This document shows, piece by piece, positions 20,101-36,357 of a stretch of DNA of 44,773 nt. Below the pieces are notes generated by a model, which did not search any database, was not told where the DNA came from, and was given only the letters and a program-made list of their open reading frames with translations. The position numbers were made by a program, and so were the translations under genes. Within the stretch, counting starts at the first letter, position 1. The number at the start of each line of letters is the position of its first letter. The stretch is taken from assembly GCA_035299845.1 (NCBI GenBank), contig DATGVY010000398.1, positions 1-44,773 on the forward strand, in the 5' to 3' direction. Source of the stretch: Streptosporangiaceae bacterium. GTDB taxonomy: Bacteria > Actinomycetota > Actinomycetes > Streptosporangiales > Streptosporangiaceae.

Positions 20101-21105
20101 ATGCGCATGCGCGCAGGACTTGTTACCGCCGCGCTGCTAACGGCGGGACTCGCGATTTCGGTAATCGTGTTCGCGCTTCACGGTCACGGCGGACGGCCGC
20201 CGGCGTGCATCACCGACCGCCAGCAGCTACAGCCGGCGGCGGCCGCATCGCGCACCGCGGAGGCGGCAATCATCGCCCGGCGACGGCCGCCGCGCCTCTC
20301 CCACGTCGTGCTGATCGTGATGGAGAACCGCGAGTGCGGCCAGATCATCGGCAGCCCTGACGCTCCCTACCTGACCGCGCTGGCTCACCGCTACGCCCAG
20401 CCGCGCGCCTTCTACGGCACCACGCATCCGTCGCTGCCCAACTACCTCGCGCTTACCTCAGGCGCGACGTTTGGCTTCACCGACTCATGCTCAGGCTGCT
20501 CGGTGCGAGCCAGCAATTTGGTGGACGAACTCGAAGCGGCCGGTATCTCCTGGAAGGCATACATGGAGGGAGCGCCCAGCCCATGCTTTCAGGGTCGGCG
20601 CGCCGGGCTGTACCGTCGCCGTCACGACCCGTTCATGTTCTATGACGACATTGCCCACAACCCGGCGCGCTGCGCCAAGGTTGTGCCACTAAGCCAACTC
20701 GCGATTGACGAAGCCCGCCACGCGCTGCCCCGGTTCGCCTGGATCAGCCCCAACTTGTGCCACGACATGCACGACTGCGCCACCCGGGTCGGTGACACCT
20801 TCCTGTCCCGGTTAGTCCCGCCGCTGCTGCGGGCGGTAGGCCAGCGGGGGGTGGTTATCATCACCTGGGACGAGGGCGGGACCAAGCGGGGCTGCTGCTC
20901 GAAGGCCCGCGGGGGAAACATCCCGACGATCCTGGCCGGGCCGTCCGTCCGCCCCGGCCTGCGGTCTACGCTGCCCTACGACGCATACTCGATCCTGCGC
21001 ACGATCGAGGACAGCTGGGGCCTGCCGCGCCTGGGCGGCGCAGCCTGCCGCTGCACGCCGCCGCTGACGGCGCTATTCCGCACGTCGCTCACCCGCCCGT
21101 CCTAG
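20101..21105 (+). CDS. Phosphoesterase family protein (PLC / acid-phosphatase AcpA-like), N-terminal membrane anchor or signal
   Basis: After an N-terminal hydrophobic segment come HVVLIVMENR, THPSLPNYLALTSG, SWKAYME, RHDPFMFY, SPNLCHDMHD and IITWDEGG. These are the ordered motifs of the phosphoesterase (PF04185-like) family. Confidence 0.8.
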   Translation: MRMRAGLVTAALLTAGLAISVIVFALHGHGGRPPACITDRQQLQPAAAASRTAEAAIIARRRPPRLSHVVLIVMENRECGQIIGSPDAPYLTALAHRYAQPRAFYGTTHPSLPNYLALTSGATFGFTDSCSGCSVRASNLVDELEAAGISWKAYMEGAPSPCFQGRRAGLYRRRHDPFMFYDDIAHNPARCAKVVPLSQLAIDEARHALPRFAWISPNLCHDMHDCATRVGDTFLSRLVPPLLRAVGQRGVVIITWDEGGTKRGCCSKARGGNIPTILAGPSVRPGLRSTLPYDAYSILRTIEDSWGLPRLGGAACRCTPPLTALFRTSLTRPS

Positions 21106-21414
21106 CTCCTGCTATCGCGGACTTCGCCGCTGGACTCAGCAAGCTCGTGATCCGCTGCGCGGCCCTGCTGCCGTTCCCGCATCGGGCCGCCGGGGTGCAT
21201 CGCGAGCCCGCTGGGAGCGATGAATCCCTCAGGCATCTCGCCGCCTGCCTACCTTGCCATCACACCTCGTGAAGCGCGTGCCCACGGGGATGCAGCAAGG
21301 ACTGTTCGGTATCCAGTGCGTCAAATGACTGGCCACGAGGTACGTCGTTGATCGTAGGTCTGCCCAGTCATGTGTAGATGGCAGGCGGTCCGGCCTTGCG
21401 CCCACTATGGCGAG

Positions 21415-22290
21415 ATGAAGGAGGACCAGCGGCCAGCTAGACGGGCATTGCCATCTCCGGTGCGGACTTTGGAAGCGCCTGGCGGCGCTGCGCGCTCTGT
21501 GGTGCCACTGCCGCAGGATCACTACGTAGTGACCTCCTCCGGGTGGCGAGGCCGCATCTCCGTGGTCATCCCGGCGTACAACGAGGCTAACAATCTGCGG
21601 TGGCTCCTGCCACAACTCGCCAACGTCGACGAGGTAATCGTCGTTGACGGCGAATCGACTGACGGAACCAGTAACGTCGTACGGGAACTGTGCCCGCACG
21701 CGACGCTCATCCGGCAGCGGCGGCAGGGTAAGGGTGCGGCACTGCGGGCCGGGTTCGCCGCCGCCGTGGGTGACGTCATCGTAATGCTCGACGCCGACGG
21801 AAGCATGGATCCGCTAGAGATCGATACCTTCGTCGCACTGATCGCCCGCGGATTCGATGTCGTGAAGGGGTCGCGCCACTCGTGCGGGGGCGGGTCGGAG
21901 GACCTGACCTTCATCCGCCGGGTAGGTAACCGGCTGTTCGTCCGGCTCGCCAATCTGCTGTACAGGAGCAGCTGGAGCGATCTGTGCTACGGCTACATCG
22001 CTATGCGCCGGTCGGCACTGGACCGGCTGTGCCTGCACTCCGACGGGTTCGAGATCGAGACCGAGATTTGCGTGCACGCGGTGACCGCAGACCTTGCCGT
22101 GGCTGAGGTGCCGAGCTATGAGCTCAACCGCCGCTCGGGAGTGTCCAACCTGCACCCGCTCAGGGACGGGTGGCGCGTGCTGAAGGTACTGCTTCGCAAC
22201 CGGCTGCGTCGGCGCACCGAAGTCGCCCGATGGGCCAGGGTCGGCCAGATTCCGGTTGAGCATGCGGGGCTTGAGCCCGCAGACGGGTGA
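21415..22290 (+). CDS. GT2 glycosyltransferase, Dpm1/GtrB-like (polyprenyl-phosphate sugar synthase type)
   Basis: ISVVIPAYNEANNL, VIVVDGESTDGT, GKGAALRAGF and MLDADGS (DxD) are present. The start could instead be ATG 21370. Confidence 0.85.
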   Translation: MKEDQRPARRALPSPVRTLEAPGGAARSVVPLPQDHYVVTSSGWRGRISVVIPAYNEANNLRWLLPQLANVDEVIVVDGESTDGTSNVVRELCPHATLIRQRRQGKGAALRAGFAAAVGDVIVMLDADGSMDPLEIDTFVALIARGFDVVKGSRHSCGGGSEDLTFIRRVGNRLFVRLANLLYRSSWSDLCYGYIAMRRSALDRLCLHSDGFEIETEICVHAVTADLAVAEVPSYELNRRSGVSNLHPLRDGWRVLKVLLRNRLRRRTEVARWARVGQIPVEHAGLEPADG

Positions 22291-23312
22291 TGGGTGTGTC
22301 CGCTGAGGTCGCGGCCGACTATCTGTCGGTGGTCGTCTGCACATATGACGAGGGACGCCGCCCGCTGCTGGAGCGCGCGCTCGAGGCACTGAAGCATCAG
22401 GAGCAGCCGCCCGCCGCGGTCATCGTCGTCGTCGACCACAATCCGAGGCTTCTCGGCGCGCTGCAGGCAGACCACCCCCAGCTCGCTGTCGTGCCCAACG
22501 ACATGAACCGCGGATTGTCGGGGGCGCGCAACTGCGGCCTCGCGCTAACGGCTACGCCCGTCGTCGCCTTCCTCGACGACGACGCGGTTCCGCAGCTGGA
22601 CTGGGTTGCCCGCCTTGCGCAGGCGTACGGAGCGGCCGACGGGCAACACATCCTCGGGGTGGGTGGTGCGATCGTCCCTTACTGGGCACAAGGGAGGCCT
22701 TCGTGGTTCCCGGCCGAGTTCGACTGGGTTGTGGGCTGCACCTACAAGGGTGCCAGGACCGACCCGGGGCCAGTGCGCAACATGCTCGGCGCGAACATGT
22801 CCTTCCGGACCGCAGAGCTGCGCCGGATCGGCGGATTCCGCGAAGGTATCGGGCGGATCGGCGCAGTGCCGCTCGGCTGTGAGGAGACCGAGGCATGCAT
22901 ACGCATGGCTCGTGAGTTCCCGGGCGGCCAGATCCGGTTCGAGCCCACCGCACGGGTGCATCACCACGTACCAGCCGAACGAGCCGGTTGGCGTTACCTG
23001 CTGCGCCGGTGCTGGGCCGAAGGGCTTTCGAAGGCGCACGTCACCGCGCTCGCTGGACGCTCCTCCGCGCTCGCGAACGAGCGGGTGTACGCGACGCGAA
23101 CACTCCCAAGGGCAATCGCTCAGTCGTTCAGCGAATCCGTGCGCAGCATGCGTATGGCGCCACTCGGCCGGGCAGTCGCCATGGTGGTCGGCCTCACAGT
23201 GACCACCGCAGGGTTCGTGGCGGGCCGACGGAACTCTGCGCGGTCCGTGAGCTACGCCAGTATCCAGCCGCACGATCTTCAGGAGGGCCTTTGCGGGGAC
23301 AGCTATGACTAG
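22290..23312 (+). CDS. GT2 glycosyltransferase with a C-terminal membrane segment
   Basis: LSVVVCTYDE, VIVVVDHNP, RGLSGARNCG, FLDDDAV (DxD) and GANMSFR are present, plus a C-terminal hydrophobic AVAMVVGLTVTTAGFVAG. The GTGATG start region overlaps the preceding TGA. Confidence 0.85.
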   Translation: MGVSAEVAADYLSVVVCTYDEGRRPLLERALEALKHQEQPPAAVIVVVDHNPRLLGALQADHPQLAVVPNDMNRGLSGARNCGLALTATPVVAFLDDDAVPQLDWVARLAQAYGAADGQHILGVGGAIVPYWAQGRPSWFPAEFDWVVGCTYKGARTDPGPVRNMLGANMSFRTAELRRIGGFREGIGRIGAVPLGCEETEACIRMAREFPGGQIRFEPTARVHHHVPAERAGWRYLLRRCWAEGLSKAHVTALAGRSSALANERVYATRTLPRAIAQSFSESVRSMRMAPLGRAVAMVVGLTVTTAGFVAGRRNSARSVSYASIQPHDLQEGLCGDSYD

Positions 23313-24432
23313 ACGGCCGACTTTCCGGCGAACATCGCGACGTACGCTCCGGGCCACCGCCATCGTCACGGCCGTGAGTGCCCCGTTGCTGGCAGTCGGC
23401 GCCACAGTAGCCGTCTCGTCCGGGTCCGTCTCGTCCGGTGCGCCTGACATCGTCTCATGCATTGTCCGGCAGCTGCCGACACTCGGCGGTCCGTACGGCA
23501 ACGTAACTGCCGCCGCGGCGAATGGTGACATTGTCGGCATCGCTGAGGACACTGCGGGAGTCGCCCAACCGGTCCTGTGGCGGGCTGGGAAACCCCAGCG
23601 AATCCGCACGGGCCTGGCCGGCAGCGTCCCCGCCGGCCTCAACGCCCATGGAGACGTCGTGGGCAACAGCCCGAACGGGGAAAACACACTGGGCTGGGCA
23701 TGGACAGGGCACCGGACCGTACGGCTCCGGGGCACGGGTAAGCTGACCGCCCTGCCCGCTGCCATCAGCAACAGCGACATCGTCGTTGGCGCACTTGAGA
23801 CGACAGAAGGAACGCCGGCCGAGGGAGACAACAAGCCGGGGACGTCAGAAAACGAGCAGGCGGCCGTGTGGCGGTCGCTGACCGGTCCACCGCAGATGCT
23901 CGCCCCGCTGCCTGGCGATCAGGGTGCCCACGCGTTCGCGGTCGCCGACGACGGACGGATCGGCGGTATCTCGGAAGGCCATCGTTTCCGCCCCGTCGTG
24001 TGGGACCTCGCCGGAAAACCCCACGCGCTGCCCGGACTGGGCGGCGGGTATGGCATCGTTCGCGCGTTCGGTCCAGGCGGCGTGGCGGTCGGTGACGCCG
24101 TGGCCAAGGACGGAACGGACCACGCGGTGAGGTGGGGCCCGGGCGGGCGGATCACCGATCTTGGCCTGCCGGCCGGGAGCCGCACGGCACAGGCCAGCGG
24201 CGTACTGCCTGGCGGAGTCGTCGTGGGCACGGCCCAGCTGCCCGCGCCTGGCGGCGGCGTACTCACACAGGCCGTGCGCTGGCCCGCAGCCGGGCAGCCG
24301 CAGCTGCTCGGGAGGCAGGAGGGCCCCAGGCAGGCCATGGTGGCCGGCGCCGCCTCGGCACAGACTGCGGTGGGCTATCGAACGGACGCCACGGGCGGCC
24401 GGCACCCGGTGAAGTGGCGGTGTGGGTCATGA
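23305..24432 (+). CDS. Secreted seven-repeat (beta-propeller-like, HAF-repeat-like) protein
   Basis: The N-terminus is Arg-rich (RRPTFRRTSRRTL) and followed by a hydrophobic signal. There are seven units of the form G-[DG]-[IV]-V-G...W (NGDIVGIAED..VLW, HGDVVGNSPN..WAW, NSDIVVGALE..AVW, DGRIGGISEG..VVW, GGVAVGDAVA..VRW, GGVVVGTAQL..VRW, QTAVGYRTDA..VKW). Confidence 0.7.
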   Translation: MTRRPTFRRTSRRTLRATAIVTAVSAPLLAVGATVAVSSGSVSSGAPDIVSCIVRQLPTLGGPYGNVTAAAANGDIVGIAEDTAGVAQPVLWRAGKPQRIRTGLAGSVPAGLNAHGDVVGNSPNGENTLGWAWTGHRTVRLRGTGKLTALPAAISNSDIVVGALETTEGTPAEGDNKPGTSENEQAAVWRSLTGPPQMLAPLPGDQGAHAFAVADDGRIGGISEGHRFRPVVWDLAGKPHALPGLGGGYGIVRAFGPGGVAVGDAVAKDGTDHAVRWGPGGRITDLGLPAGSRTAQASGVLPGGVVVGTAQLPAPGGGVLTQAVRWPAAGQPQLLGRQEGPRQAMVAGAASAQTAVGYRTDATGGRHPVKWRCGS

Positions 24433-26201
24433 AGCGCGTCATGATTGTGCTGACTACGGTCGCGCTCGCTTGTTCGGCCGTGGTCGCGGCGACGGTATGG
24501 CCGCACGTTCGTGCCAAGGCGGCCACCGCGTTCTCCTTCGCGGTCGCGGGCGATCTCGGGGCGAACGGCAACACCTCCGCAGTGCTCAATGCCGTGGCCT
24601 CCAGCGGGTCTCAGCTGTTCTGGCCCATGGGTGATCTCAGTTACAGCCAGGTCACCCCGGAGTCGGCGTGGTGCGATTACGTCCACGCCCGGCTCGGTGC
24701 GAGCTACCCCGTCGAACTGCTCGCCGGCAACCACGACGACAACGACGGGCCCGACGGATTCATTGGCAACTTCGCGTCGTGCCTGCCCGACCAGATCGGC
24801 GGTGTGCAGGGCACCTACGCGGAGGAGTACTACGTGGACTATCCGGCCACGGCTCCGCTCGTGCGGTTCATCATGATCTCGCCAGGCCTCGACCTGAATG
24901 CCAACGGCACCAACTGGTCGTACAAGCAGGGCACGGCCCACTACAACTGGACGGCGAACGCGATCGATAGCGCCCGGGCGGCGGGGATCCCGTGGGTCGT
25001 CGTGGGGATGCACGAGTACTGCCTGTCGCTCGTGAACCACTCCTGCTTTGTCAGCGACGACCTAATGAACCTGCTCGTCTCCAAGAAGGTCGACCTCTAC
25101 CTCCAGGCACATGACCACGCCTATTCACGGAGCAAGCAGCTCGCGCTGGGCCCCGGCTGTTCGGCGATCTCTAGCACGAGCTTTAACTCCTCCTGTGTCG
25201 CCGACGCCAATCCCGCGTCCAGCTACACTGCGGGAAACGGCACCGTGATCGCGACCGTAGGCAGTGGCGGGGTGTCGATCAACTCACAGGATCCGACGCT
25301 GGCCTGGGCACCCTACTTCCAGACCTACATGGGGTCCAACAACAATGCCACCTACGGGTTCCTCAAGGTCAACGTCTCGGACAGCCAGCTGTCGGCGCAG
25401 TTCGTCCGTGGGTCAGGCGGTAGCTACACCGACTCGTTCTCGCTGACCAAGCCCCTGGCGACGTCATCCCCCACTCCCACGGTGACACCAACTCCCACAC
25501 CAACTCCCACATCGAGTTCGACGGCAGCGCAGGCGTCCGTCCGCAGCAGCGCGACCTACGCCAGCACCGCGAGCGAGTCGTCGTCCACCGTGCCGATGCC
25601 AGCGGGATGGCAGCCCGGCGACGTCGTGTACGTCGGCTATGAGCTGACCAGCAGCACTACGTCGATTACCGTACCCCCCGGCTGGGTTGAGGCGGTACCA
25701 CAATTCCGGTCGGCCAGTTCCACCAGCTCGCTGAGCGGTGTGCTGCGGCGCGTCATGCAAGCAGGCGACCCGAACAGCCTCACCGTCAGCCACACCTCCG
25801 GCCGGTTCGCTGCCATATCAGCCGCTATCCAGGCCACTGACAACACCACTCCGGAAGACGTCGCCCCAACCGCCGATAACAACACCGGCGTCGCTTTCCC
25901 CAGCGTCGAGATCCCGTCCATCACCCCCGTGCAGCAGGACGCGCTACTGCTCACCTTCGCCGCCATCCGCAACGGCACCAACGGGTCCGTCACCACCTTC
26001 ACCCCGCCCACAGGGATGACGGGAGTGGCGCAGGTCTCCAGCGCCGTCTCCGGGACCTCCAACGCCGCCATCGAGATGAGCTACGCCGCGCTGTCCTCCA
26101 ACGCCGCGACCGGGATCATTGACGCCACCATCCAAACCTCAAGCGGCACCTCCGCCAACCCGATGGGCTCCACCATCGCGGTCCGCTCGGCGGGGGGGTA
26201 G
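24429..26201 (+). CDS. Secreted purple-acid-phosphatase-like metallophosphoesterase with a Thr/Pro linker and an unknown C-terminal domain of about 230 aa
   Basis: The start MKRVMIVLTTVALA is a signal peptide and overlaps the upstream gene by ATGA. The five PAP-type motifs occur in order: AGDLG, GDLSY, GNHDD, VGMHEY, AHDHAY. Next comes the linker TSSPTPTVTPTPTPTPTSSS, then a Ser/Thr/Ala-rich domain with no motif I recognise. Confidence 0.8.
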   Translation: MKRVMIVLTTVALACSAVVAATVWPHVRAKAATAFSFAVAGDLGANGNTSAVLNAVASSGSQLFWPMGDLSYSQVTPESAWCDYVHARLGASYPVELLAGNHDDNDGPDGFIGNFASCLPDQIGGVQGTYAEEYYVDYPATAPLVRFIMISPGLDLNANGTNWSYKQGTAHYNWTANAIDSARAAGIPWVVVGMHEYCLSLVNHSCFVSDDLMNLLVSKKVDLYLQAHDHAYSRSKQLALGPGCSAISSTSFNSSCVADANPASSYTAGNGTVIATVGSGGVSINSQDPTLAWAPYFQTYMGSNNNATYGFLKVNVSDSQLSAQFVRGSGGSYTDSFSLTKPLATSSPTPTVTPTPTPTPTSSSTAAQASVRSSATYASTASESSSTVPMPAGWQPGDVVYVGYELTSSTTSITVPPGWVEAVPQFRSASSTSSLSGVLRRVMQAGDPNSLTVSHTSGRFAAISAAIQATDNTTPEDVAPTADNNTGVAFPSVEIPSITPVQQDALLLTFAAIRNGTNGSVTTFTPPTGMTGVAQVSSAVSGTSNAAIEMSYAALSSNAATGIIDATIQTSSGTSANPMGSTIAVRSAGG

Positions 26202-26318
26202 TACGACGCTGGCAATCCGCCGCGGCCGGCCGGCCGGCCCGGCGACCCGCTGTTCGCTCAGCGGTGGCCGCGACTCGACCTGCGGCGAAGCTTCTGCATC
26301 ATTTCCCCGGAAGGCGCG

Positions 26319-26447: not shown

Positions 26448-27560
26448 ATGACAAGAAACCCGGTCGCGGACACCGGATGGCTATCTTTCGACCTGCACGG
26501 GCGGGCACGCATGGGAGTGGCCCGGAATGCGCCGACCGCCGCACAGCTGCGTACGATGTTCGCCGACTTCCTGACGGAAGACGGCAACGGGCCGTTCGAC
26601 CTCACGGTCACTGGGGAAATGCAGCCGGTCCACGGGGTCGCCTACGCCGAGGACGCCTTCTCCTATACGCCCAATGCGATCTGCCTGCGCACACCCCCCC
26701 TGCAGATCCTTCGCAACGGCACAGGCCTGCAGCTGAACGGTCCTGGAGAATTGCTCACCACCGTGCTTCCCCTGCTGGACCGGATTCTGGTCGAGCGCGA
26801 CGTCGCCATGATCCACGCAGCCACCGTCAGCATCGACGGCCACGGCGTCGCGCTGCCGGCGGCCGGCGGAGTCGGCAAGACAAGCACGATCGCGAAGCTG
26901 ATGCGGTGCCCCGGGGTCGGCTTCATGGGCGACGACTGGGCTTTCGTCTCGGCTGAGGGGGAGCTGCTCGGGTTCGCCAAGCCGATGTTCATAAAGCCGC
27001 ATCACCGCACGATCTACCCGCATCTTTTCCACCGGATGCGCAAACCTCTGGTGCCGAAGAGGCTGTCGCGACCCATCGGCCGGCTTACCACCGTGGTGCA
27101 CCCCGTCGTAGTGCGCTACCCGCGGCTGGCCGCCTTCACCAGGCGGTGGTCGCCTGAACACATGATCATCTCGCCGCAGGAGGCGCTCCGCGGCTCCCCC
27201 ATCGTGCGGTCCGCCCCGCTGTCGGCCGCGGTATACGTCGAGCGGTACGACGGCGCGGAGCCGCAGTTGGCCGAACTCGACCGGACCGCAATGGTCGCCC
27301 GGATGCTTGGCAATTTCCACATTGAGATGACCCCTCATTCGCGCGAGGTGCTAAATCTCCTCGGCGCGACCGGGCAGATACCACTGCAGGACATCTTCGC
27401 CGACAAGGCCACGATCCTCGGCAAGGCGCTCCAGGACGTGCCCACGTTCCTGCTCCAAGTGCCCGTCGGCTACGACGCGGACCATGCCTCCGATGTCATC
27501 GTTGACCAGCTAGCGGCGGTGATCGCTCCACTCGGTGTGTCAGTCGAGAGCAGGTCATGA
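26448..27560 (+). CDS. HPr-kinase-like (HprK C-terminal / PEPCK-fold) P-loop protein
   Basis: IHAATVSIDGHGVALPAAGGVGKTSTIAKLM is a Walker-A motif in the HprK arrangement. GFMGDDWAFV follows and corresponds to the HprK xxADD segment. The start could instead be GTG 26418. Confidence 0.6.
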   Translation: MTRNPVADTGWLSFDLHGRARMGVARNAPTAAQLRTMFADFLTEDGNGPFDLTVTGEMQPVHGVAYAEDAFSYTPNAICLRTPPLQILRNGTGLQLNGPGELLTTVLPLLDRILVERDVAMIHAATVSIDGHGVALPAAGGVGKTSTIAKLMRCPGVGFMGDDWAFVSAEGELLGFAKPMFIKPHHRTIYPHLFHRMRKPLVPKRLSRPIGRLTTVVHPVVVRYPRLAAFTRRWSPEHMIISPQEALRGSPIVRSAPLSAAVYVERYDGAEPQLAELDRTAMVARMLGNFHIEMTPHSREVLNLLGATGQIPLQDIFADKATILGKALQDVPTFLLQVPVGYDADHASDVIVDQLAAVIAPLGVSVESRS

Positions 27561-30500
27561 GTGTCGTTGACGACCATGTCCAGCTTGCGGACCTGACGGT
27601 CGTCATACCGGTTCGCAACGCCGAGCGGCTCCTCCCGGCATGCATGGAATCGGCGCTACGGGAGCAACCTCGGGCGGTCATCGTCGTCGACGGGGAGTCG
27701 AGCGACCGCACGGTCGAGATCGCCCGCGAGTACGGCGCCTTGGTGGTCTCCGACGAAGGGCGGGGCCTTCCGGTGGCGCGCAAGCTCGGCGCCGAGTTCG
27801 CAACAACCCCGTACGTCGTCTTGGTCGATGCCGATGTCGTGCTGCACGAGGGTGCCTTGCACAGCCTGCGTCAAGAGTTCGAGGAGGGGAACTACACCGC
27901 GTTGCAGGCCGGCCTGATCAGCACCGGCGGCCCAGGCTACTGGGGCCGCGCGCTCGCACAACACCACCGGTGGGGCCGCAGCAGGAACTGGTTCGGCCTA
28001 GTCGCCACTATCTTCGACCGGGAAACGCTGCTCCGTATTGGCTTCGACGAGAAGTTCATCTCAGGCGAGGACATCGAGCTGCGCTGGCGGTTGCAGCGGG
28101 AGGGCGCACGCGTGGGCGTTTCGGCGCGAACCCTCGTCACCCACCGGTTCGGTGAGGACTCCTTCGCCTTCGCGCGCATGCAGTTCCGCATGGACGGCCG
28201 GGGCCTCGGCAAGATGATCCGCAAGCATGGATGGCGGGGTGCGCCCCTGCTGGCGTTGCCCGGCGCTGCTGCCGTTCGGGGCATCGGGCTCAGCCTGGTT
28301 CGGCTCCGCCCGCAGTGGATCCCCTACTATCTCTGCTTCGCCATCTTCAACTACCTGGCGATGATCGCCGAGCTGGCAACTGCCGCTCCCCAGGTAACGG
28401 AGCGGCTGGTGCGTCGGGTCCTGGGTAAAGGGGCGATGACCAGCGACGCGATCGGCCTGATCATCGGTCGCATGGCCTCGCTGGGCCTCGGGTTCCTGTT
28501 CTGGCTGGTCGCCGCCCACGTGGCCAGGCCAGCGCAGGTCGGATTCACAGCCGCCGTCGTGTCCGCGATGATGCTGTGCACACAGTTCGCCCAGCTCGGC
28601 ACGGGACAGGCCTTCATTAAGCTGTACCCTCGGCACCTCAAGAAGCCGGCCCCGTTGCTTGACAGCGTGCTCTCTATGGCCATGATCGGGGCGATTGGGG
28701 TCAGCCTGGCCTTCTTGTTGTTCGCCCGCACCATGTTTACCCAGCTCGATCATGTGGCGCACGATCCGGTCTGGGCGGTCGCGTTTCTCGCCCTGTCGGT
28801 GTTTGGCACCGCGCAGATCGTCTTCGACCAGATCTCGATGGGTCTTGAACGCGGCGGCCAGGCCGTTACTCGCAACGTCGCCTGCGGCCTGCTCACGCTC
28901 GCTCCGCTGGCTGTGCTGCCCGCCCTCGGTATCGGGGTGTCCAGATTGGGACTCTTCCTGGCCTGGGTTCTGGGCGGCGCGGGCACGGTCACGTTCGGTC
29001 TCTGGCAGCTCCGGAAATCGTGCGGTGGTTACCTGTACCGGCCACGGCTCGTGCGCAGCCTCATTCCAGCAATGGCGACGACCGGCCTCGCCAATCACAC
29101 GCTCACGCTCACCGAGCGCGTACCCGGACTGGTATTGCCGATCGTGGTGGCCGAGCTGCTCTCCCCCCAGGCGAACGCATACTGGTACGTGATCTGGATG
29201 AGTGCCTGGGTAGCGTTCATCACACCGCTTTCGGTAGGTATCGCGCTATTCGCCGAGGGCTCCCATCGGCCGACTACCATGTCCACGGCCACCACCCAGG
29301 CCCTGCGGGTCTCGCTGATCTTCGGCGGCGGAGGCGCGGTCTTGCTGTGCCTGCTCGCCAGCCCGGTGCTCGACCTGCTCGGTCATGACTACGCGCGGGC
29401 CGGCGTGACGCCGCTGCGCATCCTGCTGCTCGGCGTGATCCCGATGGCGTTCACCAGCGCCTACTACGCCGGATGCCGGGCGCGGGGGCGGCTGGGTGAG
29501 GCGATCGTCATCGGTATCCTCGGCGGCCTGGCGGCCATCTTCGTCACTGCCATGGCAGGCGTCCACTACGGCCTGACCGGCATGGCCGTCGCCTGGGTTG
29601 CCGTCCAAGCGATCGTCGCCTGCTGGGCCGGACTGCGGCTGTGGGCGGCGCGGGTGGTAGAAGCACCCGCAGGCGTCAAGCCGACACTGGCACCAACGCG
29701 GCAGACGTCACGCCGCCCGGCGATGCTTGAGCAGCTGCGCTTCCTCGCGCTGCCAGTCGCGGCGGTCGCGTGCTGGGCCTGGTCGCTGCCGCGCATCCAC
29801 GCCGGGGCGATGAACGATCTCGGCCTCGTCTCTGTGCTCCCATGGCAGACGTGGCTGGCGTTCGGCCTGCTCACCGTCGGCTTCATCGCCTGCTGGCGGC
29901 GCGCTGAACGGACAACCTGGCTGCTCCTCGTGCATGTGCTGCTGCTGATTTTCATGCTGTACGGGCTGCCCGGCCTGGTCCTCCACGAGCCGAGCGGGCC
30001 CATCGTGTTCCGGCACGCCGGCATCACCGAGAACCTGATCCGGACCAGGATCGTCAACACCAAGATCGACGCCTACTTCAGCTGGCCCGGCTTCTTCATG
30101 GGCATGGCCACGCTGGTCAAGCTCGGCGGGGCATCGAGCGCGCTCACCTTCGCCACCTGGGCGACCGTCGCCTTCAACCTGCTGTACCTGGCACCGCTGC
30201 TGCTCCTGACGCGGGCGCTGACGCGGGATCCGCGGCTGGCGTGGGCCACCATATGGATCTTCTACGCGGCGAACTGGATCGAGCAGGATTACCTGTCGCC
30301 GCAGGCCTTCACCTATCTCCTCTACCTGACGATCCTGGCACTGCTGCTCACGTATCTCCGCCCCCGCGATAGCGACCCCGACGCAGGCGGCCGGTGGGGG
30401 CGCAAGCTGCGGGCGCTGCTCCGGGTACGCATGGCTGACGTTCCGGTTCCCGTGGTCTCCCGCTGGACGACCGCGGCCGTGGTGGCGCTGGTGGTGCTGC

Positions 30501-31579
30501 TCTACACCGCCACCGTAGCGAGCCACCAGCTCACGCCGTTCGCGATCCTGATCAGCGTGGTGGCGCTCGTCGCCATCGGCCAGTGCACCGCACGTGGGCT
30601 GCCGCTGCTGATGGCGGTCATCGTCGCGCTGTGGGTTACCTTCGTCGCGCATGGCTACATCTCCGGGCATTTCGGCCAGATGGTCGGCAGCCTTGGCGAC
30701 CTGACCAGGGCCACCTCGGCCAACGTCACCGCGCGGCTCACCGGCAGCCCGCAGCACCTGATCGTGGTCCGGGAGCGGCTGCTGCTCAGCGGGATGCTGT
30801 GGCTGCTCGCGCTGCTCGGCGGCATCCGCCGGTTCCGGGCCGGCTATGCCGACCAAGCGGCCGCCGCACTGTGCCTCGCGCCGCTGCTGATGTTCGGCAT
30901 GCAGGTGTACGGCGGCGAGATGCTGTTGCGCATCTACTTCTTCATGCTGCCCTTCGTGGCATTCTTCGCAGCAGCCGCTCTCCGGGTGAACCGGGTGCCG
31001 GGCCGCAGGCTGCGCGCTCGCCTGCCCGTCGCGCTGCGCGGCAGCGCCACCGTCACCGCCCTCGGCCTGCCCATCACCGTCCTGCTGGCCGGCTGCCTAC
31101 TGGCGCGGTACGGGAACGAGCGCGCGGATTACTTCACCCCGAGTGACCGGGCCGCGTTCAGCTTCCTATACGCGCAGGCGCTGCCAGGTTCCACGTTCGC
31201 GGTCGAGCAGCCGTACCTGCCGTGGAAATACCAGGGATACGACCAGCACAAGTACCTGTCGGTCGAGTCAATGCTCGGCCAGCCGAACTCGCCCTCGCCC
31301 GCTCAGGCGCTGGCCCTGGTCACCCGCGCGCTCCGGCCGTTCCCCGGGCACCCAGCCGGATTCGTGATCTTGACCCGCTCGCAGCACGTGTACGCCCAGA
31401 TCTTCGGCGGCGTGCTCTCGCTGAGCTACATCGACAAATTCGAGCACCTGCTGTCGAAATCGCCGCGGTTCCGGCTCGTTTACGCCAGTACCAGCGCGCA
31501 GGTCTACGTACGACAGCTCTACCAGCGGCATCCCGCACTGGCTCAGCCACGACGGCCGGAGTTGAGGCATGCACGATAG
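27557..31579 (+). CDS. 1340-aa fusion: GT2 glycosyltransferase + MOP/Wzx-like flippase + GT-C-like polytopic domain with a C-terminal soluble module
   Basis: Residues ~1-240 are GT2-like: LTVVIPVRNAE, VIVVDGESSDRT, LVDADV (DxD), SGEDIELRWR. Residues ~290-690 contain about 12 hydrophobic helices with a Wzx-like layout. Residues ~700-1190 contain about 12 more helices (NDLGLVSVLPWQTW, DAYFSWPGFF). Residues ~1190-1340 are soluble and end FRLVYASTSAQVYVRQ. The reading frame is uninterrupted with high GC3 throughout. Confidence 0.75.
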   Translation: MSVVDDHVQLADLTVVIPVRNAERLLPACMESALREQPRAVIVVDGESSDRTVEIAREYGALVVSDEGRGLPVARKLGAEFATTPYVVLVDADVVLHEGALHSLRQEFEEGNYTALQAGLISTGGPGYWGRALAQHHRWGRSRNWFGLVATIFDRETLLRIGFDEKFISGEDIELRWRLQREGARVGVSARTLVTHRFGEDSFAFARMQFRMDGRGLGKMIRKHGWRGAPLLALPGAAAVRGIGLSLVRLRPQWIPYYLCFAIFNYLAMIAELATAAPQVTERLVRRVLGKGAMTSDAIGLIIGRMASLGLGFLFWLVAAHVARPAQVGFTAAVVSAMMLCTQFAQLGTGQAFIKLYPRHLKKPAPLLDSVLSMAMIGAIGVSLAFLLFARTMFTQLDHVAHDPVWAVAFLALSVFGTAQIVFDQISMGLERGGQAVTRNVACGLLTLAPLAVLPALGIGVSRLGLFLAWVLGGAGTVTFGLWQLRKSCGGYLYRPRLVRSLIPAMATTGLANHTLTLTERVPGLVLPIVVAELLSPQANAYWYVIWMSAWVAFITPLSVGIALFAEGSHRPTTMSTATTQALRVSLIFGGGGAVLLCLLASPVLDLLGHDYARAGVTPLRILLLGVIPMAFTSAYYAGCRARGRLGEAIVIGILGGLAAIFVTAMAGVHYGLTGMAVAWVAVQAIVACWAGLRLWAARVVEAPAGVKPTLAPTRQTSRRPAMLEQLRFLALPVAAVACWAWSLPRIHAGAMNDLGLVSVLPWQTWLAFGLLTVGFIACWRRAERTTWLLLVHVLLLIFMLYGLPGLVLHEPSGPIVFRHAGITENLIRTRIVNTKIDAYFSWPGFFMGMATLVKLGGASSALTFATWATVAFNLLYLAPLLLLTRALTRDPRLAWATIWIFYAANWIEQDYLSPQAFTYLLYLTILALLLTYLRPRDSDPDAGGRWGRKLRALLRVRMADVPVPVVSRWTTAAVVALVVLLYTATVASHQLTPFAILISVVALVAIGQCTARGLPLLMAVIVALWVTFVAHGYISGHFGQMVGSLGDLTRATSANVTARLTGSPQHLIVVRERLLLSGMLWLLALLGGIRRFRAGYADQAAAALCLAPLLMFGMQVYGGEMLLRIYFFMLPFVAFFAAAALRVNRVPGRRLRARLPVALRGSATVTALGLPITVLLAGCLLARYGNERADYFTPSDRAAFSFLYAQALPGSTFAVEQPYLPWKYQGYDQHKYLSVESMLGQPNSPSPAQALALVTRALRPFPGHPAGFVILTRSQHVYAQIFGGVLSLSYIDKFEHLLSKSPRFRLVYASTSAQVYVRQLYQRHPALAQPRRPELRHAR

Positions 31580-31919
31580 ATGGCTGCGGCCCGGAATAGT
31601 CCTCGCCTCCGGGACCGCCCTGGTAACGGTGATAGCCACCGGGATCGGCGCCCCCTGGCGCACGATCCTGGCCCTCTGGTTCGTGCTCGTCTGTCCGGGT
31701 GTGAGCCTGGTCGGCGTGCTCGGCCTGCGAGACCGCCTGGTCGAACTGGGCGTGGTGGCGCCGCTGAGCCTGGCGCTCGTGACGCTCACCTCGGTCGCCC
31801 TGTTCTACGGGGGTGTCTGGTCCACCAAGGCGGAGTTCGGCCTGCTGCTCGGGCTGTGCCTGATCGGGCTTGCCTGGTCCCACCTCCGCTCTCGTACTGA
31901 CGTGAAGGGGGAGGCATGA
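31569..31919 (+). CDS. Small 4-TM membrane protein (116 aa)
   Basis: High-GC3 frame with four hydrophobic segments. It overlaps the upstream gene by 11 nt and the downstream gene by ATGA. Confidence 0.6.
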   Translation: MHDRWLRPGIVLASGTALVTVIATGIGAPWRTILALWFVLVCPGVSLVGVLGLRDRLVELGVVAPLSLALVTLTSVALFYGGVWSTKAEFGLLLGLCLIGLAWSHLRSRTDVKGEA

Positions 31920-32143
31920 GCTATCTGCTAGCGAGCAATCCGCTGCAGCTCAGGGAAATCACTCCCGTCTACTTCGTGCCGATCGCCGCGTTACTTGTCC
32001 TGCTCGTGGAGCGGGAGATGATCCGCACCAGGCCGGGAACGCCGAGGGCGACGGCGCACCATGTGATCGATCTCGCCATCGTCCCGCTGATGTCCCTGTT
32101 CCTGATCTTCGTCGGCCTCCGCGCCGTCACCGTGCTCGGGTGA
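31916..32143 (+). CDS. Small 2-TM membrane protein (75 aa)
   Basis: High-GC3 frame with two hydrophobic segments (VYFVPIAALLVLLV and LAIVPLMSLFLIFVGL). It is coupled at both ends (ATGA and GTGA). Confidence 0.55.
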   Translation: MSYLLASNPLQLREITPVYFVPIAALLVLLVEREMIRTRPGTPRATAHHVIDLAIVPLMSLFLIFVGLRAVTVLG

Positions 32144-32973
32144 GCGCCATGACGGTACCCACAACGCTCGTACGACCGCGCCGGACGGAGCGGGCCAGCC
32201 TTGCCCTGGAGGGCCTGGCCTTCGCGACCGCCCTGGCCGGCGCAGAGGCGGTCTACCGCCTGGCCGGCCAGTTCTGGGGCGCCGTCTGCTTCGCCGTGGT
32301 CTTCCTCGCGATCGTCCATGTGGCCGCACTGGTCGGCGCGCGGGGGGTCGGCGCGCGGGGAACCGCTAATTCGGCGCTGACAGTACTCATCGCGGCGGCC
32401 AGCCTGGTCCCGCTGGAACGGCTGCTCGTGCTCAGCGCGCCCACGCTGACCTTCCTGCGGCTCTACCCGAATGCTCTGTGGGTGCTGCCCATCGGCGTGA
32501 CCGGGGGGTACGCCTACCGGGCCCGCTGGATCCCGGGGCCGCGCCCACTGGTGCTGCCCCCGCCCGGCGGCCGACGGCCGCGCGCCGTCCAGGCGGCCGT
32601 GCTGGTGACGGGTGCCGGGCTCGGCGTGCTTGGCGCCGTTATCGTTCCCTATGCTGGCCCGCATGTGCTGGTGCACCAGGACGCGGCGAAGTGGGTCGGG
32701 GCAGCGCTGTTCGCGCTGGCCGGCGCGGCGGAAGAACTGGCCTGGCGCGGCGTCCTGCAGTCGTTCGCGGTCAACGCCGCCGGCCCGGCGGGGATCGCAT
32801 TCTCCTTCCTCGCGTCCGCATACGTCTCGGTGGCCTGGATGGGCCCGATAGCGGCCGTGCCGGTCATCGCCCTGTCGACGGTGACCAGCGTGGTCGTCTA
32901 CCGGACTCGCTACCTGGGCGGGGCCGTGGCGGCCCACTTCCTGCTGAACCTGCTGCTGCTGACGCTACGGTGA
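32140..32973 (+). CDS. CPBP family intramembrane glutamic endopeptidase (CAAX protease/Abi-like)
   Basis: A polytopic membrane protein with AAEELAWRG (the EExxxR motif) and AAHFLLN (the HxxxN motif). Confidence 0.75.
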   Translation: MSAMTVPTTLVRPRRTERASLALEGLAFATALAGAEAVYRLAGQFWGAVCFAVVFLAIVHVAALVGARGVGARGTANSALTVLIAAASLVPLERLLVLSAPTLTFLRLYPNALWVLPIGVTGGYAYRARWIPGPRPLVLPPPGGRRPRAVQAAVLVTGAGLGVLGAVIVPYAGPHVLVHQDAAKWVGAALFALAGAAEELAWRGVLQSFAVNAAGPAGIAFSFLASAYVSVAWMGPIAAVPVIALSTVTSVVVYRTRYLGGAVAAHFLLNLLLLTLR

Positions 32974-34058
32974 GCGAATCCACGCTCGTCATCACCAGCG
33001 ACCTCCACCTCGGTGGAGGCATTCCGGCTGAGGCCTGGGGTCCAGGATTCAGCGACGAGTTCACCGACGACCAGGCCTTCAGCGACTTCCTACGCTGGCT
33101 CAGTCAGCGCCGGGGGTGCCGGCTGGTGTTCCTCGGCGATGCCTTCGATTTCCTGCGGGTTCCGGTGACCGGTGCGCGTACCGGCCTGTTCGCCCGCTGC
33201 GACGCCGAGGCGGTCGCCCAGCTTGACCGAATCGCCGCAGCCCACCCCACCGTGGTCAAGGCCCTGTCGGCTGCGCTCGCCGCAGGAGTGCATGTCGACT
33301 TCGTGTCCGGAAATCACGACGCTGAGCTCATTCGGCCAGCGGTACGGGAACGGCTGTGCGCGCTACTCGGGGCACAGGTCAGCTTTCACTCATGGATTCT
33401 GTACATCCCCGGGTTGCTCTACGCCGAGCACGGTCATCATCACCACGACATCAACACGTTCGTTCGCCCGCTGTACCCGTATGCGAAGAACGACGGACGC
33501 CTCGAGCGGCCACCCGCGGCATGGCTCGGTGACCTACGGCGCTTTCCTGCGAGCCCTAGCCATTTGTGGCGGGATGCCATGACAGGGCTACGCGGTCGCC
33601 CCTCGGCCAGGGGGCGCGCCGAGTACCTCGCCGGGCTGGCTCCGACGCACGCGGACGAGATCGGACTCCCGGAGGGCGTCTTGGCGGAGTTGCACCAGCT
33701 GGCCAGCTTCTCGCCGTTTGGAGTCGGGTGGCGGCTGGTCAGCACGCGACTGCGGCGCGGCGACCGCCGCGGTTACCTGCCCACCGCCGCTGCCGCCGTA
33801 CACGACCTGCTGGCCCGCAACCAGCTTGCCGTGCCGTTCTACGCGTTCGGCCACACGCACGCCGCGATGCGATTGCCGCTGGGGACGAATGCGTGGTATC
33901 TCAACAGTGGCACCTGGTCGAGGATGACCTGGGGCAGCGCCCGGGCCCGCAGGACATGGATTGAGATCACGGTAGGCGAGGCGCCTGACGCTGGCGCGCG
34001 GCTGTTCCACTGGACCGGCACCGCGGAGCCGCATACCGACCGCAGAGTGCCCATCTAG
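32970..34058 (+). CDS. Cytoplasmic calcineurin-like metallophosphoesterase (LpxH-like layout)
   Basis: The GTG start at 32970 overlaps the upstream TGA (GTGA). ITSDLHLG, FLGDAFDF, SGNHDAE, AEHGHHHH and AFGHTH are metallophosphoesterase motifs I-V. There is no signal peptide. The ORF-track extension from 32478 overlaps the CPBP gene. Confidence 0.8.
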   Translation: MSESTLVITSDLHLGGGIPAEAWGPGFSDEFTDDQAFSDFLRWLSQRRGCRLVFLGDAFDFLRVPVTGARTGLFARCDAEAVAQLDRIAAAHPTVVKALSAALAAGVHVDFVSGNHDAELIRPAVRERLCALLGAQVSFHSWILYIPGLLYAEHGHHHHDINTFVRPLYPYAKNDGRLERPPAAWLGDLRRFPASPSHLWRDAMTGLRGRPSARGRAEYLAGLAPTHADEIGLPEGVLAELHQLASFSPFGVGWRLVSTRLRRGDRRGYLPTAAAAVHDLLARNQLAVPFYAFGHTHAAMRLPLGTNAWYLNSGTWSRMTWGSARARRTWIEITVGEAPDAGARLFHWTGTAEPHTDRRVPI

Positions 34059-36345: not shown

Positions 36346-36357
36346 CCAGCCATCCGC

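Follow-up and report, generated by a model that had tools for sequence, protein, structure and literature searches.

AglG of Haloferax has a Dol-P-linked sugar as its substrate. An earlier note on this DNA had pointed to the combination of a GT2 polyprenyl-phosphate-sugar synthase, a flippase and a GT-C enzyme, the logic of Gtr-type and PMT-type systems, and this logic holds. We describe here a conserved gene set without a database name. Its most likely task is to assemble a short sugar chain on a lipid carrier in the membrane, to move it to the other side and to attach it to a cell-envelope target, with the participation of a kinase-like enzyme and a phosphoesterase.

The window, that is, the whole stretch of DNA analysed, comprises 44,773 nucleotides. 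The source contig is soil actinobacterial. According to the ORF listing of the window, the region 20101-34058 contains 11 ORFs on the plus strand. Thirteen same-strand genes had been counted before; the common strand is correct, and 13 is reached only as a number of functional units, when the 1340-aa protein is tallied as three domains. All domain calls could be reproduced (the HAF repeats by eye; for the label "purple-acid" see below), and all eight start/stop overlaps were found again:

20101-21105, + strand: PLC/AcpA phosphoesterase (PF04185, E 4e-31)
21415..22290, + strand: B, GT2a, polyprenyl-phosphate hexose synthase-like, DPM1/AglJ/ArnC/GtrB type (PF00535, E 1e-29)
22287-22292, + strand: overlap GTGATG, GT2a/GT2b junction, read from the sequence
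22287..23312, + strand: C, GT2b, AglG-like glycosyltransferase with C-terminal membrane anchor (PF00535, E 2.5e-19)
23305-23312, + strand: overlap ATGACTAG, GT2b/D junction, read from the sequence
23305..24432, + strand: D, secreted protein with 7x HAF-type repeat and Tat-like signal (repeats by eye)
24429, + strand: overlap ATGA, D/E junction
24429..26201, + strand: E, secreted calcineurin-like metallophosphatase (PF00149, E 5e-8)
26316-26354, + strand: GC-rich imperfect hairpin 3' of gene E, ~16 bp, bulged
26379-26447, + strand: conserved 5' region of F (spacer alignment with relatives)
26448..27560, + strand: F, soluble P-loop phosphotransferase, predicted PEPCK/HprK superfamily (AF2/Foldseek)
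27557, + strand: overlap ATGA, F/G1 junction
27557..28411, + strand: G1, GT2c domain, fusion residues 1-285 (PF00535, E 4.8e-21)
28412..29656, + strand: G2, Wzx/MOP-type flippase domain, fusion residues 286-700 (Polysacc_synt)
29650..29654, + strand: GCGGG run, one G more than in close relatives (alignment with L090, L008)
29657..31579, + strand: G3, predicted GT-C(A)-fold membrane glycosyltransferase (AF2/Foldseek)
31569-31579, + strand: overlap of 11 nt, G3/H junction
31569..31919, + strand: H, 116-aa membrane protein with 3-4 TM helices (TM prediction)
31916, + strand: overlap ATGA, H/I junction
31916..32143, + strand: I, 75-aa, 2-TM protein (TM prediction)
32140, + strand: overlap GTGA, I/J junction
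32140..32973, + strand: J, CPBP/Rce1-like intramembrane protease (PF02517, 37 bits, cut-off 22.4)
32970, + strand: overlap GTGA, J/K junction
32970..34058, + strand: K, cytoplasmic LpxH-like metallophosphoesterase (family motifs and profile)

Judged by sequence comparison, the conserved core is GT2a-GT2b-[F]-GT2c-Wzx-like flippase-GT-C-small membrane protein-LpxH-like metallophosphoesterase. The orthologues are not dispersed: the core genes are strongly co-localised in two phyla, Actinomycetota and Chloroflexota, and the gene set is also present in culturable Arthrobacter. The species-genome collection contains 215 confirmed places with a relative of F. Among 53 well-flanked F-anchored loci of the two phyla, we found G1 and G2 in 51 each, K in 49, G3 in 47, H in 46, GT2b in 42 and GT2a in 40. 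The genes F-G1-G2-G3-K are colinear in 39/53 loci; GT2a and GT2b lie directly upstream in 20/53 and elsewhere within the locus in others. Nucleotide-sugar synthesis genes or a glycan acceptor are not encoded within the cluster. The earlier note could map the genes onto no named pathway. We likewise found neither a named pathway nor an NCBIfam equivalog for F or the GT-C protein in the databases and in the part of the literature that was covered, and the source annotation calls both "hypothetical protein".

The island of 13 units is not a single system, as several of its genes are optional or unlinked. The PLC/AcpA gene was rejected as a member, since it lies beside just one related cluster (L093). 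D, with seven repeats seen by eye and a HAF_rpt HMM match below threshold, was met together with the cluster in close relatives and otherwise only in L158 and L116, where its position differs. E has an N-terminal hydrophobic signal and a Pro/Thr linker followed by a Ser/Thr-rich C-terminal domain. It had been called a secreted purple-acid-phosphatase-like enzyme; the secreted metallophosphatase stands (PF00149, signal peptide), whereas a "purple-acid" N-domain was not detected in E. It also occurs near the cluster at other positions (L100, L158, L168). D and E are located between GT2b and F in the lineage of the window and elsewhere in others, and they are an optional pair outside the core. 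The same is true for the CPBP gene, whose start codon is uncertain (32140 or 32149), and the 75-aa gene. J is present in 13/87 loci (nine once the window's own contigs and duplicates are set aside), always between H and K, and I in 12/87, every one with the CPBP gene; they form an optional sub-module.

The spacer between E and F (26202-26447) has 246 nt and contains the hairpin, both as described previously. The hairpin (dG -35.2 kcal/mol by folding) has no T-run or U-tract, and in the spacer comparison it is not kept in relatives; it is probably the terminator of the B-E block. The 5' region of F, on the other hand, is kept in 7 close relatives, while the remaining spacer diverges. It comprises a 28-nt box at 26379-26406 and CATAGT at 26436-26441, 6 nt ahead of the ATG of F; ATAGT and ATGAC are invariant in 9/9 sequences. 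From this conservation we infer a promoter function, with the box and CATAGT as candidate operator and -10 element of a leaderless transcript. Instead of one coupled operon, the two blocks thus resemble separate transcription units.

The first two glycosyltransferases are most similar to known enzymes of lipid-linked sugar chemistry. GT2a, which could start at 21370, 21415 or 21562, matches the NCBIfam models AglJ (141 bits) and Dol-P-hexose transferase (82 bits), and GT2b matches GtaseAglG_Halo over its full length (E 3e-59, 201 bits, cut-off 440), all of these family matches being below the equivalog cut-offs. The nearest solved relatives of GT2a are without exception polyprenyl-phosphate glycosyltransferases, the best being Pyrococcus Dol-P-Man synthase (5mlz, E 1e-18), ArnC and GtrB. 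GT2b is predicted to extend the lipid-linked monosaccharide.

The third glycosyltransferase, GT2c, is a separate gene of ~280 aa in most genomes and here part of the 1340-aa fusion. The flippase domain G2, for which multiple TM helices are predicted, scores 29.6 bits against Polysacc_synt when scanned alone (cut-off 28.2). In close relatives G1-G2 is a 700-aa protein, and a TAG shortly after the insertion site closes the flippase ORF. The alignment shows that the flippase ORF was joined to the GT-C ORF by the additional G in the GCGGG run, which only this strain has; 4 assemblies contain the identical fusion protein. The fusion as a feature of the family was ruled out.

The AF2 model of G3 (pLDDT 86, pTM 0.88) retrieves by Foldseek STT3 (2e-7), AglB, AftA, ArnT, DPY19 and PglB with E 2e-7 to 1e-4 and probability 1.0; against ArnT the TM-scores are 0.48/0.55. 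On the basis of this model we are confident that G3 is a GT-C(A)-fold enzyme, of a family without Pfam model. D55, D212 and YGGE are invariant in 48 sequences. The candidate catalytic Asp is in the first external loop after TM1 (fusion residue 754, nt 29816-29818). H follows directly downstream of G3 in 65/87 loci (iterated HMM) and is fused to a cytoplasmic nucleotidyltransferase in sister clusters. H is a core component, either a partner of the GT-C enzyme or a small carrier-lipid flippase.

F is listed in the precomputed annotation as PF27840 "ScmC" and matches HprK_rel_A weakly. Its model (AF2, pLDDT 84) is most similar to ATP-PEPCK (E 1e-8, TMq 0.51) and HprK/P (E 6e-6) and thus predicts a P-loop fold of the PEPCK/HprK superfamily. 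The motifs GGxGKT, FMGDDW and KPxFIKPHHR are invariant, the P-loop being intact, and the start at ATG 26448 is backed by conservation. With 47.8-65.9% identity across phyla (median 52%), F is one of the most highly conserved proteins of the set. Independent natural fusions exist as GT2b-F (P0242-P0245, P0252, P0292), GT4-F and GT2-F, and distant homologues are found in classic polysaccharide loci of Bacteroidota and in another assembly. Some homologues have degenerate P-loops; F may act on a nucleotide, lipid or protein rather than as a glycan kinase.

K of the window matches no Pfam model. In its family the five MPE motifs (DxH, GD, GNHD, H, GHxH) are invariant, motifs IV and V being set apart by an inserted domain, and the best PDB matches of the family profile are LpxH of several species (E 3e-6). 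Neither a TM helix nor a signal sequence is predicted for F or K. Both are present in 6 and both absent from 11 of 18 G3-anchored loci, K alone being found in one; this co-variation has a Fisher p of 4e-4 with loci counted regardless of phylogeny. Sister clusters have swapped the F/K pair for a nucleotidyltransferase and a 2H phosphoesterase, likewise an NTP-dependent transferase with a phosphoesterase. The kinase-like protein and the cytoplasmic phosphoesterase are integral to the system. The proposal that three phosphoesterases serve one chemistry shrinks to this single conserved pair, because the PLC/AcpA gene is unlinked and the secreted metallophosphatase optional.

Folds and families, conserved synteny, GT2b-F fusions and F/K co-variation are established here. 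We suggest that the core is an assembly line which carries a glycan from the cytoplasm to the outside on a polyprenyl monophosphate carrier. GT2a would make polyprenyl-P-hexose. GT2b and GT2c would then elongate it at the cytoplasmic face to a short lipid-linked oligosaccharide. F, as ATP-dependent P-loop phosphotransferase, and LpxH-like K could add a phosphate-containing group to the lipid-linked intermediate or modify one there, a role which we propose only tentatively and for which we would not give even odds. The Wzx-like protein would flip the product, and finally the GT-C enzyme with H would transfer the glycan to an extracytoplasmic acceptor, which might be a cell-wall polymer, a lipid or a secreted protein. 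The order of natural fusion, that is, cytoplasmic GT2, flippase, GT-C, fits the proposed orientation. Carrier lipid, order of steps, substrate of F and K and acceptor are what we infer. We assign the general scheme of lipid-linked assembly, flipping and GT-C transfer a probability of roughly 0.6, the product most likely being a polyprenyl-phosphate-linked oligosaccharide with phosphate chemistry.

If the GT-C enzyme were an oligosaccharyltransferase that moves the lipid-linked glycan en bloc onto secreted proteins, the targets would include the HAF protein, the Ser/Thr/Pro-rich metallophosphatase and Big_5/CBM96 proteins of other genomes. The top Foldseek matches of G3 (STT3, AglB), the similarity of GT2a and GT2b to AglJ and AglG, the PT linker and Ser/Thr-rich domain of E, and the unrelated secreted proteins which differing lineages carry inside the operon would agree with this. 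G3, however, has no STT3 Pfam match, its external C-terminal domain has only ~110 residues, and ArnT is the structure nearest to G3 when TM-scores are normalised to the target. Moreover, the secreted neighbours bear glycan-binding or -cleaving domains (CBM96, GH16, beta-helix), which suit enzymes more than substrates. Protein glycosylation seems unlikely to us. These neighbours could instead remodel a secondary wall polymer, which might be acidic and carry phosphate and which the GT-C enzyme would make by ligating or polymerising flipped repeat units. In 39 loci the neighbourhood includes a secreted protein with Big_5 or fn3 plus CBM96, and in ~21 it includes GH16-type proteins; CBM96 is defined in PMC9971899 as an alginate-binding, that is, polyuronate-binding module. 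GT2b resembles a glucuronosyltransferase, and distant F homologues lie within capsule/EPS loci. Against a wall or exopolysaccharide pathway, which we consider possible but doubtful, the cluster has no initiating phosphoglycosyltransferase, Wzy, chain-length regulator or exporter, and we know of no GT-C enzyme that polymerises oligosaccharide repeat units.

In a Gtr/Arn-like decoration system, H might flip a polyprenyl-P-monosaccharide made by GT2a, and the GT-C enzyme would attach single residues to a polymer that already exists, leaving F, K, the Wzx-like protein and the remaining GT2s to a separate co-located pathway. GT2a is indeed GtrB/ArnC-like, G3 resembles ArnT, and H, always encoded behind the GT-C gene, is like GtrA or ArnE/F in size and in number of TM helices. 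But H matches none of the Pfam and NCBIfam models, GtrA included, and in 37/40 G3-anchored loci whose upstream sequence was long enough the Wzx-like gene accompanies the GT-C gene (its position being read immediately upstream of G3). In relatives, start/stop coupling links the flippase ORF to the GT-C ORF, and in the window the two are fused, which argues that both serve one pathway. Such decoration is quite improbable in our view. On a further reading F would phosphorylate a small peptide, as lasso-peptide kinases do, and F weakly matches the HprK-related kinase A/B and ScmC models of peptide-modification cassettes. The CPBP protein could then be a protease or immunity protein of a RiPP-type modification, its gene adjoining two small ORFs in the window. 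These ORFs, however, encode conserved polytopic membrane proteins rather than precursor peptides, genes for a cyclase, PqqD and radical-SAM proteins are all absent, most clusters have no CPBP gene, and F is fused to or embedded among glycosyltransferases in several phyla. We hardly expect a peptide substrate.

AglJ and AglG are enzymes of Haloferax N-glycosylation, to which GT2a and GT2b of the window are similar proteins. STT3 carries the WWDxG motif, which G3 does not have, and G3 is similar in fold to ArnT, an enzyme that modifies a lipid.

The core of the cluster at 20101-34058 consists of eight genes which encode the glycosyltransferases GT2a and GT2b, the kinase-like protein F, a third glycosyltransferase (GT2c), a Wzx-like flippase, the GT-C domain G3, the small membrane protein H and the metallophosphoesterase K; the remaining genes are variable. 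This follows from a scan of species genomes (one genome per species) anchored on F, in which relatives were confirmed by tblastn at 215 places. We took the 80 best of these 215 loci as the F-anchored set. They belong to Arthrobacter, Pseudarthrobacter, Georgenia, Sinomonas, Acidimicrobiia, Solirubrobacteraceae, Thermomicrobiales, Chloroflexia and Anaerolineaceae, and 53 of them have enough flanking DNA for counts. With the window proteins as tblastn queries, GT2c and the flippase were each found in 51 of the 53 loci, K in 49, G3 in 47, GT2b in 42 and GT2a in 40. The earlier note had proposed a search for gene-neighbourhood conservation, and the order is indeed kept, since F, GT2c, flippase, GT-C and K are colinear in 39 of the 53 loci. 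In 65 of 87 loci the GT-C gene is immediately followed by the gene for an H-like small membrane protein, as an iterated HMM shows.

Other genes of the region are not part of this set. The CPBP protease gene, listed by the earlier note among the contents of the island, is present in only 13 of 87 loci; the gene for a 75-aa protein occurs in 12 of 87, each of which also has the CPBP gene. The HAF propeller and the secreted metallophosphatase are confined to close relatives or, in a few lineages, stand elsewhere in the vicinity of the cluster. We rejected the PLC/AcpA-type phosphoesterase as a member of the system, to which it had earlier been assigned: none of the 80 F-anchored genome loci has it, and among the loci found via the GT-C family it is present in L093 only, the matches in L118 and L159 being weak (33-35%). 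The notion of an accessory island can be retained in part. The patchy distribution fits an accessory trait, but the mobile unit is the eight-gene core and not the region of thirteen units.

Genes for secreted proteins are frequent neighbours, and they differ from lineage to lineage. A protein of about 700 aa with Big_5 or fn3 and CBM96/DNRLRE domains is encoded in or beside the operon at 39 loci, and GH16 or beta-helix proteins at about 21. In the Thermomicrobiales such genes interrupt the operon 3′ of the kinase-like gene. No match exists for the first ~470 residues of the CBM96 protein.

Secreted Big_5/fn3 plus CBM96/DNRLRE, GH16 or beta-helix neighbours in related loci
L029, 16637-18886
L012, 6871-9507
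L040, 8863-9666
L007, 11425-20641

The window contig has a high GC content (66-74%) and derives from an uncultured actinomycete of a soil metagenome. The identical 1340-aa protein (GT2c, flippase and GT-C in one chain) with the same neighbours is found on Ga0099828_10000116 and Ga0137388_10001005 (JGI), on WNEZ01001642.1 (a MAG) and on one ENA contig. Within 20101-34058 we find 11 open reading frames, all on the plus strand. All eight start/stop overlaps described before were found again, as was the 246-nt spacer (26202-26447), whose imperfect hairpin at 26316-26354 has a dG of -35 kcal/mol and lacks a T-run. The domain assignments, too, could each be reproduced or sharpened. Pfam supports the three GT2 domains, the PLC/AcpA phosphoesterase, the secreted Metallophos protein and the CPBP protease, which falls into the CPBP/Rce1-like family (PF02517, 37 bits against a cut-off of 22.4). 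Scanned as an isolated domain the flippase reaches 29.6 bits for Polysacc_synt (cut-off 28.2). The profile score of the seven-repeat propeller (HAF) is sub-threshold, yet the sevenfold repeat is visible by eye.

Single-sequence searches of solved structures with F, G3, the flippase domain and K returned nothing useful; for these four only profiles or predicted folds were informative. For G3 we modelled the C-terminal 641 residues of the fusion with AF2 and 48 homologues (pLDDT 86, pTM 0.88). The top 24 PDB matches in Foldseek are all GT-C enzymes (STT3, AglB, AftA, ArnT, DPY19, PglB, AftD; probability 1.0, TM 0.40-0.55), and the polytopic membrane core superposes on STT3, ArnT, AftA and DPY19, as the GT-C(A) fold demands. 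D55 (within MNDLGL), which stands straight after the first transmembrane helix and thus in the first extracytoplasmic loop, does not vary among 48 family members; a second invariant aspartate, D212, belongs to the conserved loop motif that follows. We infer that the conserved acidic residue of G3 would be catalytic. There is no STT3 Pfam match for G3, no WWD motif among the conserved columns of the 48 members, and the external domain of the model is not large (about 110 residues). G3 thus has the GT-C(A) fold and is not an oligosaccharyltransferase of the STT3 family. More than 1200 members of the G3 family are present in the protein collection, without Pfam domain and all named "hypothetical protein". 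Context for a putative polyprenyl-phosphate-linked donor of G3 is given by a GtrB/DPM1-like GT2 and a flippase in the cluster.

The 1340-aa fusion has to be abandoned as a hallmark of the family. GT2c, flippase and GT-C are three separate genes in most genomes (about 280, 445 and 620-650 aa), and in the clade of the window GT2c and flippase form a fused protein of 700 aa. In contigs of 94% identity the flippase frame stops at a TAG that overlaps the start of the GT-C gene; just 5′ of this site the window strain carries one additional G in the run 29650-29654, by which the TAG is lost and the GT-C frame is joined. A second triple fusion exists in L102. The order of the fused parts fits the expected topology, with a cytoplasmic GT2, a flippase with cytoplasmic ends and a GT-C enzyme with a cytoplasmic N-terminus.

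The AF2 model of the kinase-like protein F (26448-27560; pLDDT 84) has its best structural match in ATP-dependent PEP carboxykinases (E = 1e-8, about 400 aligned columns), followed by HprK/P. As modelled, the fold of the whole protein is nearer to ATP-PEPCK than to HprK/P. The invariant motifs GGxGKT, FMGDDW and KPxFIKPHHR agree with the P-loop/DD arrangement of the PEPCK/HprK superfamily. With 16 bits for hpr-ser (cut-off 240) and 29 bits for HprK_rel_A (cut-off 200), F falls outside the HPr kinase/phosphorylases; the precomputed annotation of many 80-94% identical homologues lists PF27840 ("ScmC"). Neither a transmembrane helix nor a signal sequence is predicted for F or K. With the F profile, 1679 relatives were retrieved among 1.84 billion cluster representatives. 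They include independent natural fusions of a GT2b orthologue with F, several in number and 43-51% identical to both window proteins, as well as a single GT4-F fusion and another fusion of the GT2-F type.

Fusion proteins of an AglG-like GT2, a GT4 or another GT2 with the kinase-like domain
P0242-P0245, P0252, P0292, P0280, P0291

Distant homologues of F (about 20-30% identity; Chryseobacterium and other bacteria) sit within ordinary polysaccharide loci with Wzz, UDP-glucose dehydrogenase, Wzx, GT1/GT4 and Bac_transf. Two full-length homologues, P0266 and P0270, have lost the glycine and lysine residues of the P-loop, which suggests that they are non-catalytic paralogues.

The metallophosphoesterase K has no Pfam match. 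Its cytoplasmic metallophosphoesterase assignment is nevertheless borne out by the motifs DxH, GD, GNH[DE], H and GHxH, all invariant in 10 orthologues, and by LpxH as the best PDB match of the family profile (E = 3e-6). The LpxH equivalog model gives 23 bits and thus does not reach its cut-off of 134. By its size, its number of transmembrane helices and its conserved position the 116-aa protein H could be a small flippase of the GtrA/SMR type; it has no Pfam or NCBIfam match.

A second scan, this time of metagenomes and anchored on the GT-C family, showed that this family extends beyond F. Of 18 well-flanked loci, 6 contain all three of F, GT2c and K, 8 contain none of them, 3 have GT2c alone, and 1 has GT2c and K without F. 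Fisher's test for F against K in these 18 loci gives p = 4e-4, uncorrected for phylogeny. In a sister cluster without F such as L146 the order is GT2a, GT2b, polysaccharide deacetylase, GT2, flippase and GT-C, followed by a fusion of an H-like membrane domain with a Pol-beta/ANT-type nucleotidyltransferase, a LigT-like 2H esterase and a GH16 protein.

Sister clusters without F and K
L146, 6230-14692
also L124, L125, L126, L133, L141, L142 and L145

The nucleotidyltransferase occurs in 8 loci without F and the 2H esterase in 4, and neither was found in any locus containing F. Two different pairs, each of an NTP-dependent transferase and a phosphoesterase, thus stand in the same system. These alternating pairs are the best available hint of phosphate chemistry on the glycan or its carrier at the cytoplasmic side.

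Seven close relatives share the last 70 nt upstream of F; the remainder of the spacer, with the hairpin, diverges. This suggests termination after the metallophosphatase gene and a separate promoter for the genes from F to K.

Elements 5′ of the kinase-like gene, conserved in relatives
26379-26406, plus strand, 28-nt box
26436-26441, plus strand, CATAGT, 6 nt before the ATG

The stretch 26379-26447 looks like an operator with the -10 element of a leaderless transcript, and the promoter would probably be leaderless and activator-dependent. Scans for sigma-70 and terminator consensus sequences stayed at background level. The Rfam and tRNA scans found nothing; hence there is no riboswitch and no island bounded by a tRNA. 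In the window and in several other genomes the cluster is bordered by histidine kinases and response regulators of the LuxR type; similar two-component genes stand beside it in L005, L007, L008 and L029.

Flanking genes in the window
4145-7600, minus strand, GlmS-like GATase+SIS gene in an over-long open reading frame
19561-19872, left side, C-terminal histidine-kinase fragment (HATPase_c) of 103 aa, overlapping the stop of a luciferase-like monooxygenase gene
34055-39344, minus strand, directly downstream, three LuxR/NarL-type response regulators, a MASE3/HisKA_3 histidine kinase and a second kinase fragment
39584-40417, right side, shortened Mutator-family transposase (profile positions 18-207 of 379)
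41903-44401, minus strand, 832-aa Ser/Thr protein kinase with C-terminal lactonase-like beta-propeller

The kinase-propeller gene and the GlmS-like gene seem to have nothing to do with the cluster beyond being ordinary neighbours. In the secreted metallophosphatase (24429-26201) the 245 C-terminal residues (~346-590) after a (Thr-Pro)n linker are rich in Ser, Thr and Ala and match no family; a 62% identical copy lies on the opposite strand in L076.

The logic of the system is a familiar one, in which a glycan is built on a lipid inside the cell and flipped, and a GT-C enzyme then transfers it on the outside. Four of its constant parts, the GT-C family, F, K and H, are without characterised counterpart in the queried databases. 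None of the four has an NCBIfam equivalog, a PADLOC model or a source name, and no named pathway was found for F or G3. PADLOC gave no anti-phage defence match for 8 proteins of the region. We found no paper on the cluster; the literature coverage is incomplete, so that "uncharacterised" refers to database annotation, and a characterisation may have been published. The set spans two phyla and is found in easily grown strains of Arthrobacter, Pseudarthrobacter, Georgenia and Sinomonas, which brings its envelope structure within reach of standard genetic and glycan-chemical methods; the loci L051, L075 and L082 of Arthrobacter or Pseudarthrobacter derive from complete genomes. A new GT-C family can be placed within the evolution of the fold, and a widespread "hypothetical" P-loop family, which is also present in capsule loci of Bacteroidota, gains its first functional context. 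The alternation of kinase and metallophosphoesterase with nucleotidyltransferase and 2H esterase is a natural experiment on the addition of phosphate to envelope glycans.

We suggest that the pathway proceeds in the following steps. GT2a would make a polyprenyl-P-hexose, which GT2b and GT2c could extend. F and K might introduce or modify a phosphate-containing group, the Wzx-like protein would flip the product, and finally the GT-C enzyme together with H would transfer the glycan to an external acceptor. The closest solved relatives of GT2a are Dol-P-Man synthase (5mlz, 1e-18), ArnC (3e-11) and GtrB (4e-6); such a GtrB/ArnC-type match speaks for homology rather than for function. Carrier, acceptor, sequence of the steps and what F and K act on are inferred. 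A more far-reaching reading, to which we assign a probability of roughly 15%, is that Actinomycetota and Chloroflexota (Terrabacteria) may have their own Agl-like en bloc pathway: a kinase of the PEPCK/HprK fold would help to build a phospho-oligosaccharide on polyprenyl monophosphate by acting on a lipid-linked sugar, and an unrecognised GT-C family would transfer it to envelope proteins or wall polymers. If true, this would be a new type of bacterial oligosaccharyltransferase and the first glycan substrate of this kinase fold.

Four other readings were weighed against the proposed pathway. A kinase, a CPBP protease and small open reading frames would also be at home in a RiPP or lasso-peptide cassette, but neither the window cluster nor the related loci contain a precursor peptide, macrolactam synthetase, radical-SAM or PqqD-like element, and this reading is the only one of the four that is clearly disfavoured. 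The genes could instead serve the synthesis of a wall polymer or exopolysaccharide. With the Wzx/Wzy O-antigen, capsule and exopolysaccharide loci they share a flippase of the Wzx family (MOP) and several GT2s, and loci of this type in Bacteroidota hold the distant F homologues. Here, however, a GT-C enzyme takes the place of polymerase or ligase, and a Pfam search of the window and representative related loci found no initiating phosphoglycosyltransferase, Wzy, Wzz/PCP chain-length regulator or export component in or beside the cluster. A further reading is a Gtr-like decoration with a single sugar. The Gtr and Arn systems (GtrA/GtrB/GtrC; ArnC/ArnE-F/ArnT) likewise combine a polyprenyl-P-sugar synthase of the GT2 type, a small membrane protein resembling a 4-TM protein and a GT-C enzyme, and by target-normalised TM-score ArnT is the closest to G3 (0.55). 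The present system differs in that homology of H to GtrA or SMR is undetectable and that it adds F, K, two GT2s and, in tight coupling with the GT-C gene, a flippase of the Wzx type; the additional GT2s and the coupled flippase imply an oligosaccharide donor. The last reading is protein glycosylation, and envelope proteins are one of the two acceptors named in the far-reaching Agl-like reading.

Single components also have described relatives. F shares the P-loop fold and the GxGK(T/S)...DD arrangement with HprK/P, ATP-PEPCK and the HprK-like peptide kinases (ScmC, PF27840; HprK-related kinase A/B), but its scores are far under the family cut-offs (29 bits against 200) and its context is glycosyltransferases and not PTS, gluconeogenesis or peptide-maturation genes. 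K shares with LpxH (UDP-2,3-diacylglucosamine pyrophosphatase) the calcineurin-like core and a domain inserted between the catalytic motifs; in K this domain is longer and unrelated in sequence, and the score is 23 bits against 134. To our knowledge lipid A synthesis is not known from Actinomycetota and Chloroflexota, the hosts of K. The cluster lies outside the definitions of STT3 oligosaccharyltransferases, Wzx/Wzy pathways, HprK/P and LpxH.

The nearest described systems are the three-component Gtr/Arn systems and the Agl pathway of Haloferax volcanii (AglJ, AglG, AglI/E, AglR, AglB). We know of no Agl counterparts of F, the LpxH-like K and the small H. The present system is bacterial (Actinomycetota, Chloroflexota), and its GT-C enzyme stands apart from the STT3/AglB family by its small external domain and the absence of WWDxG and of an STT3 HMM match. 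AglJ and AglG are the best NCBIfam matches of GT2a and GT2b, which are homologues and not equivalogs (141 bits against 325, and 201 against 440); GT2b aligns with Haloferax AglG over its full length (E = 3e-59). Common to both is a GT2 of the Dol-P/polyprenyl-P-hexose synthase type, an AglG-like GT2 extending the monophosphate-linked sugar, further GT2s, a Wzx-type flippase and a transferase of the GT-C(A) fold.
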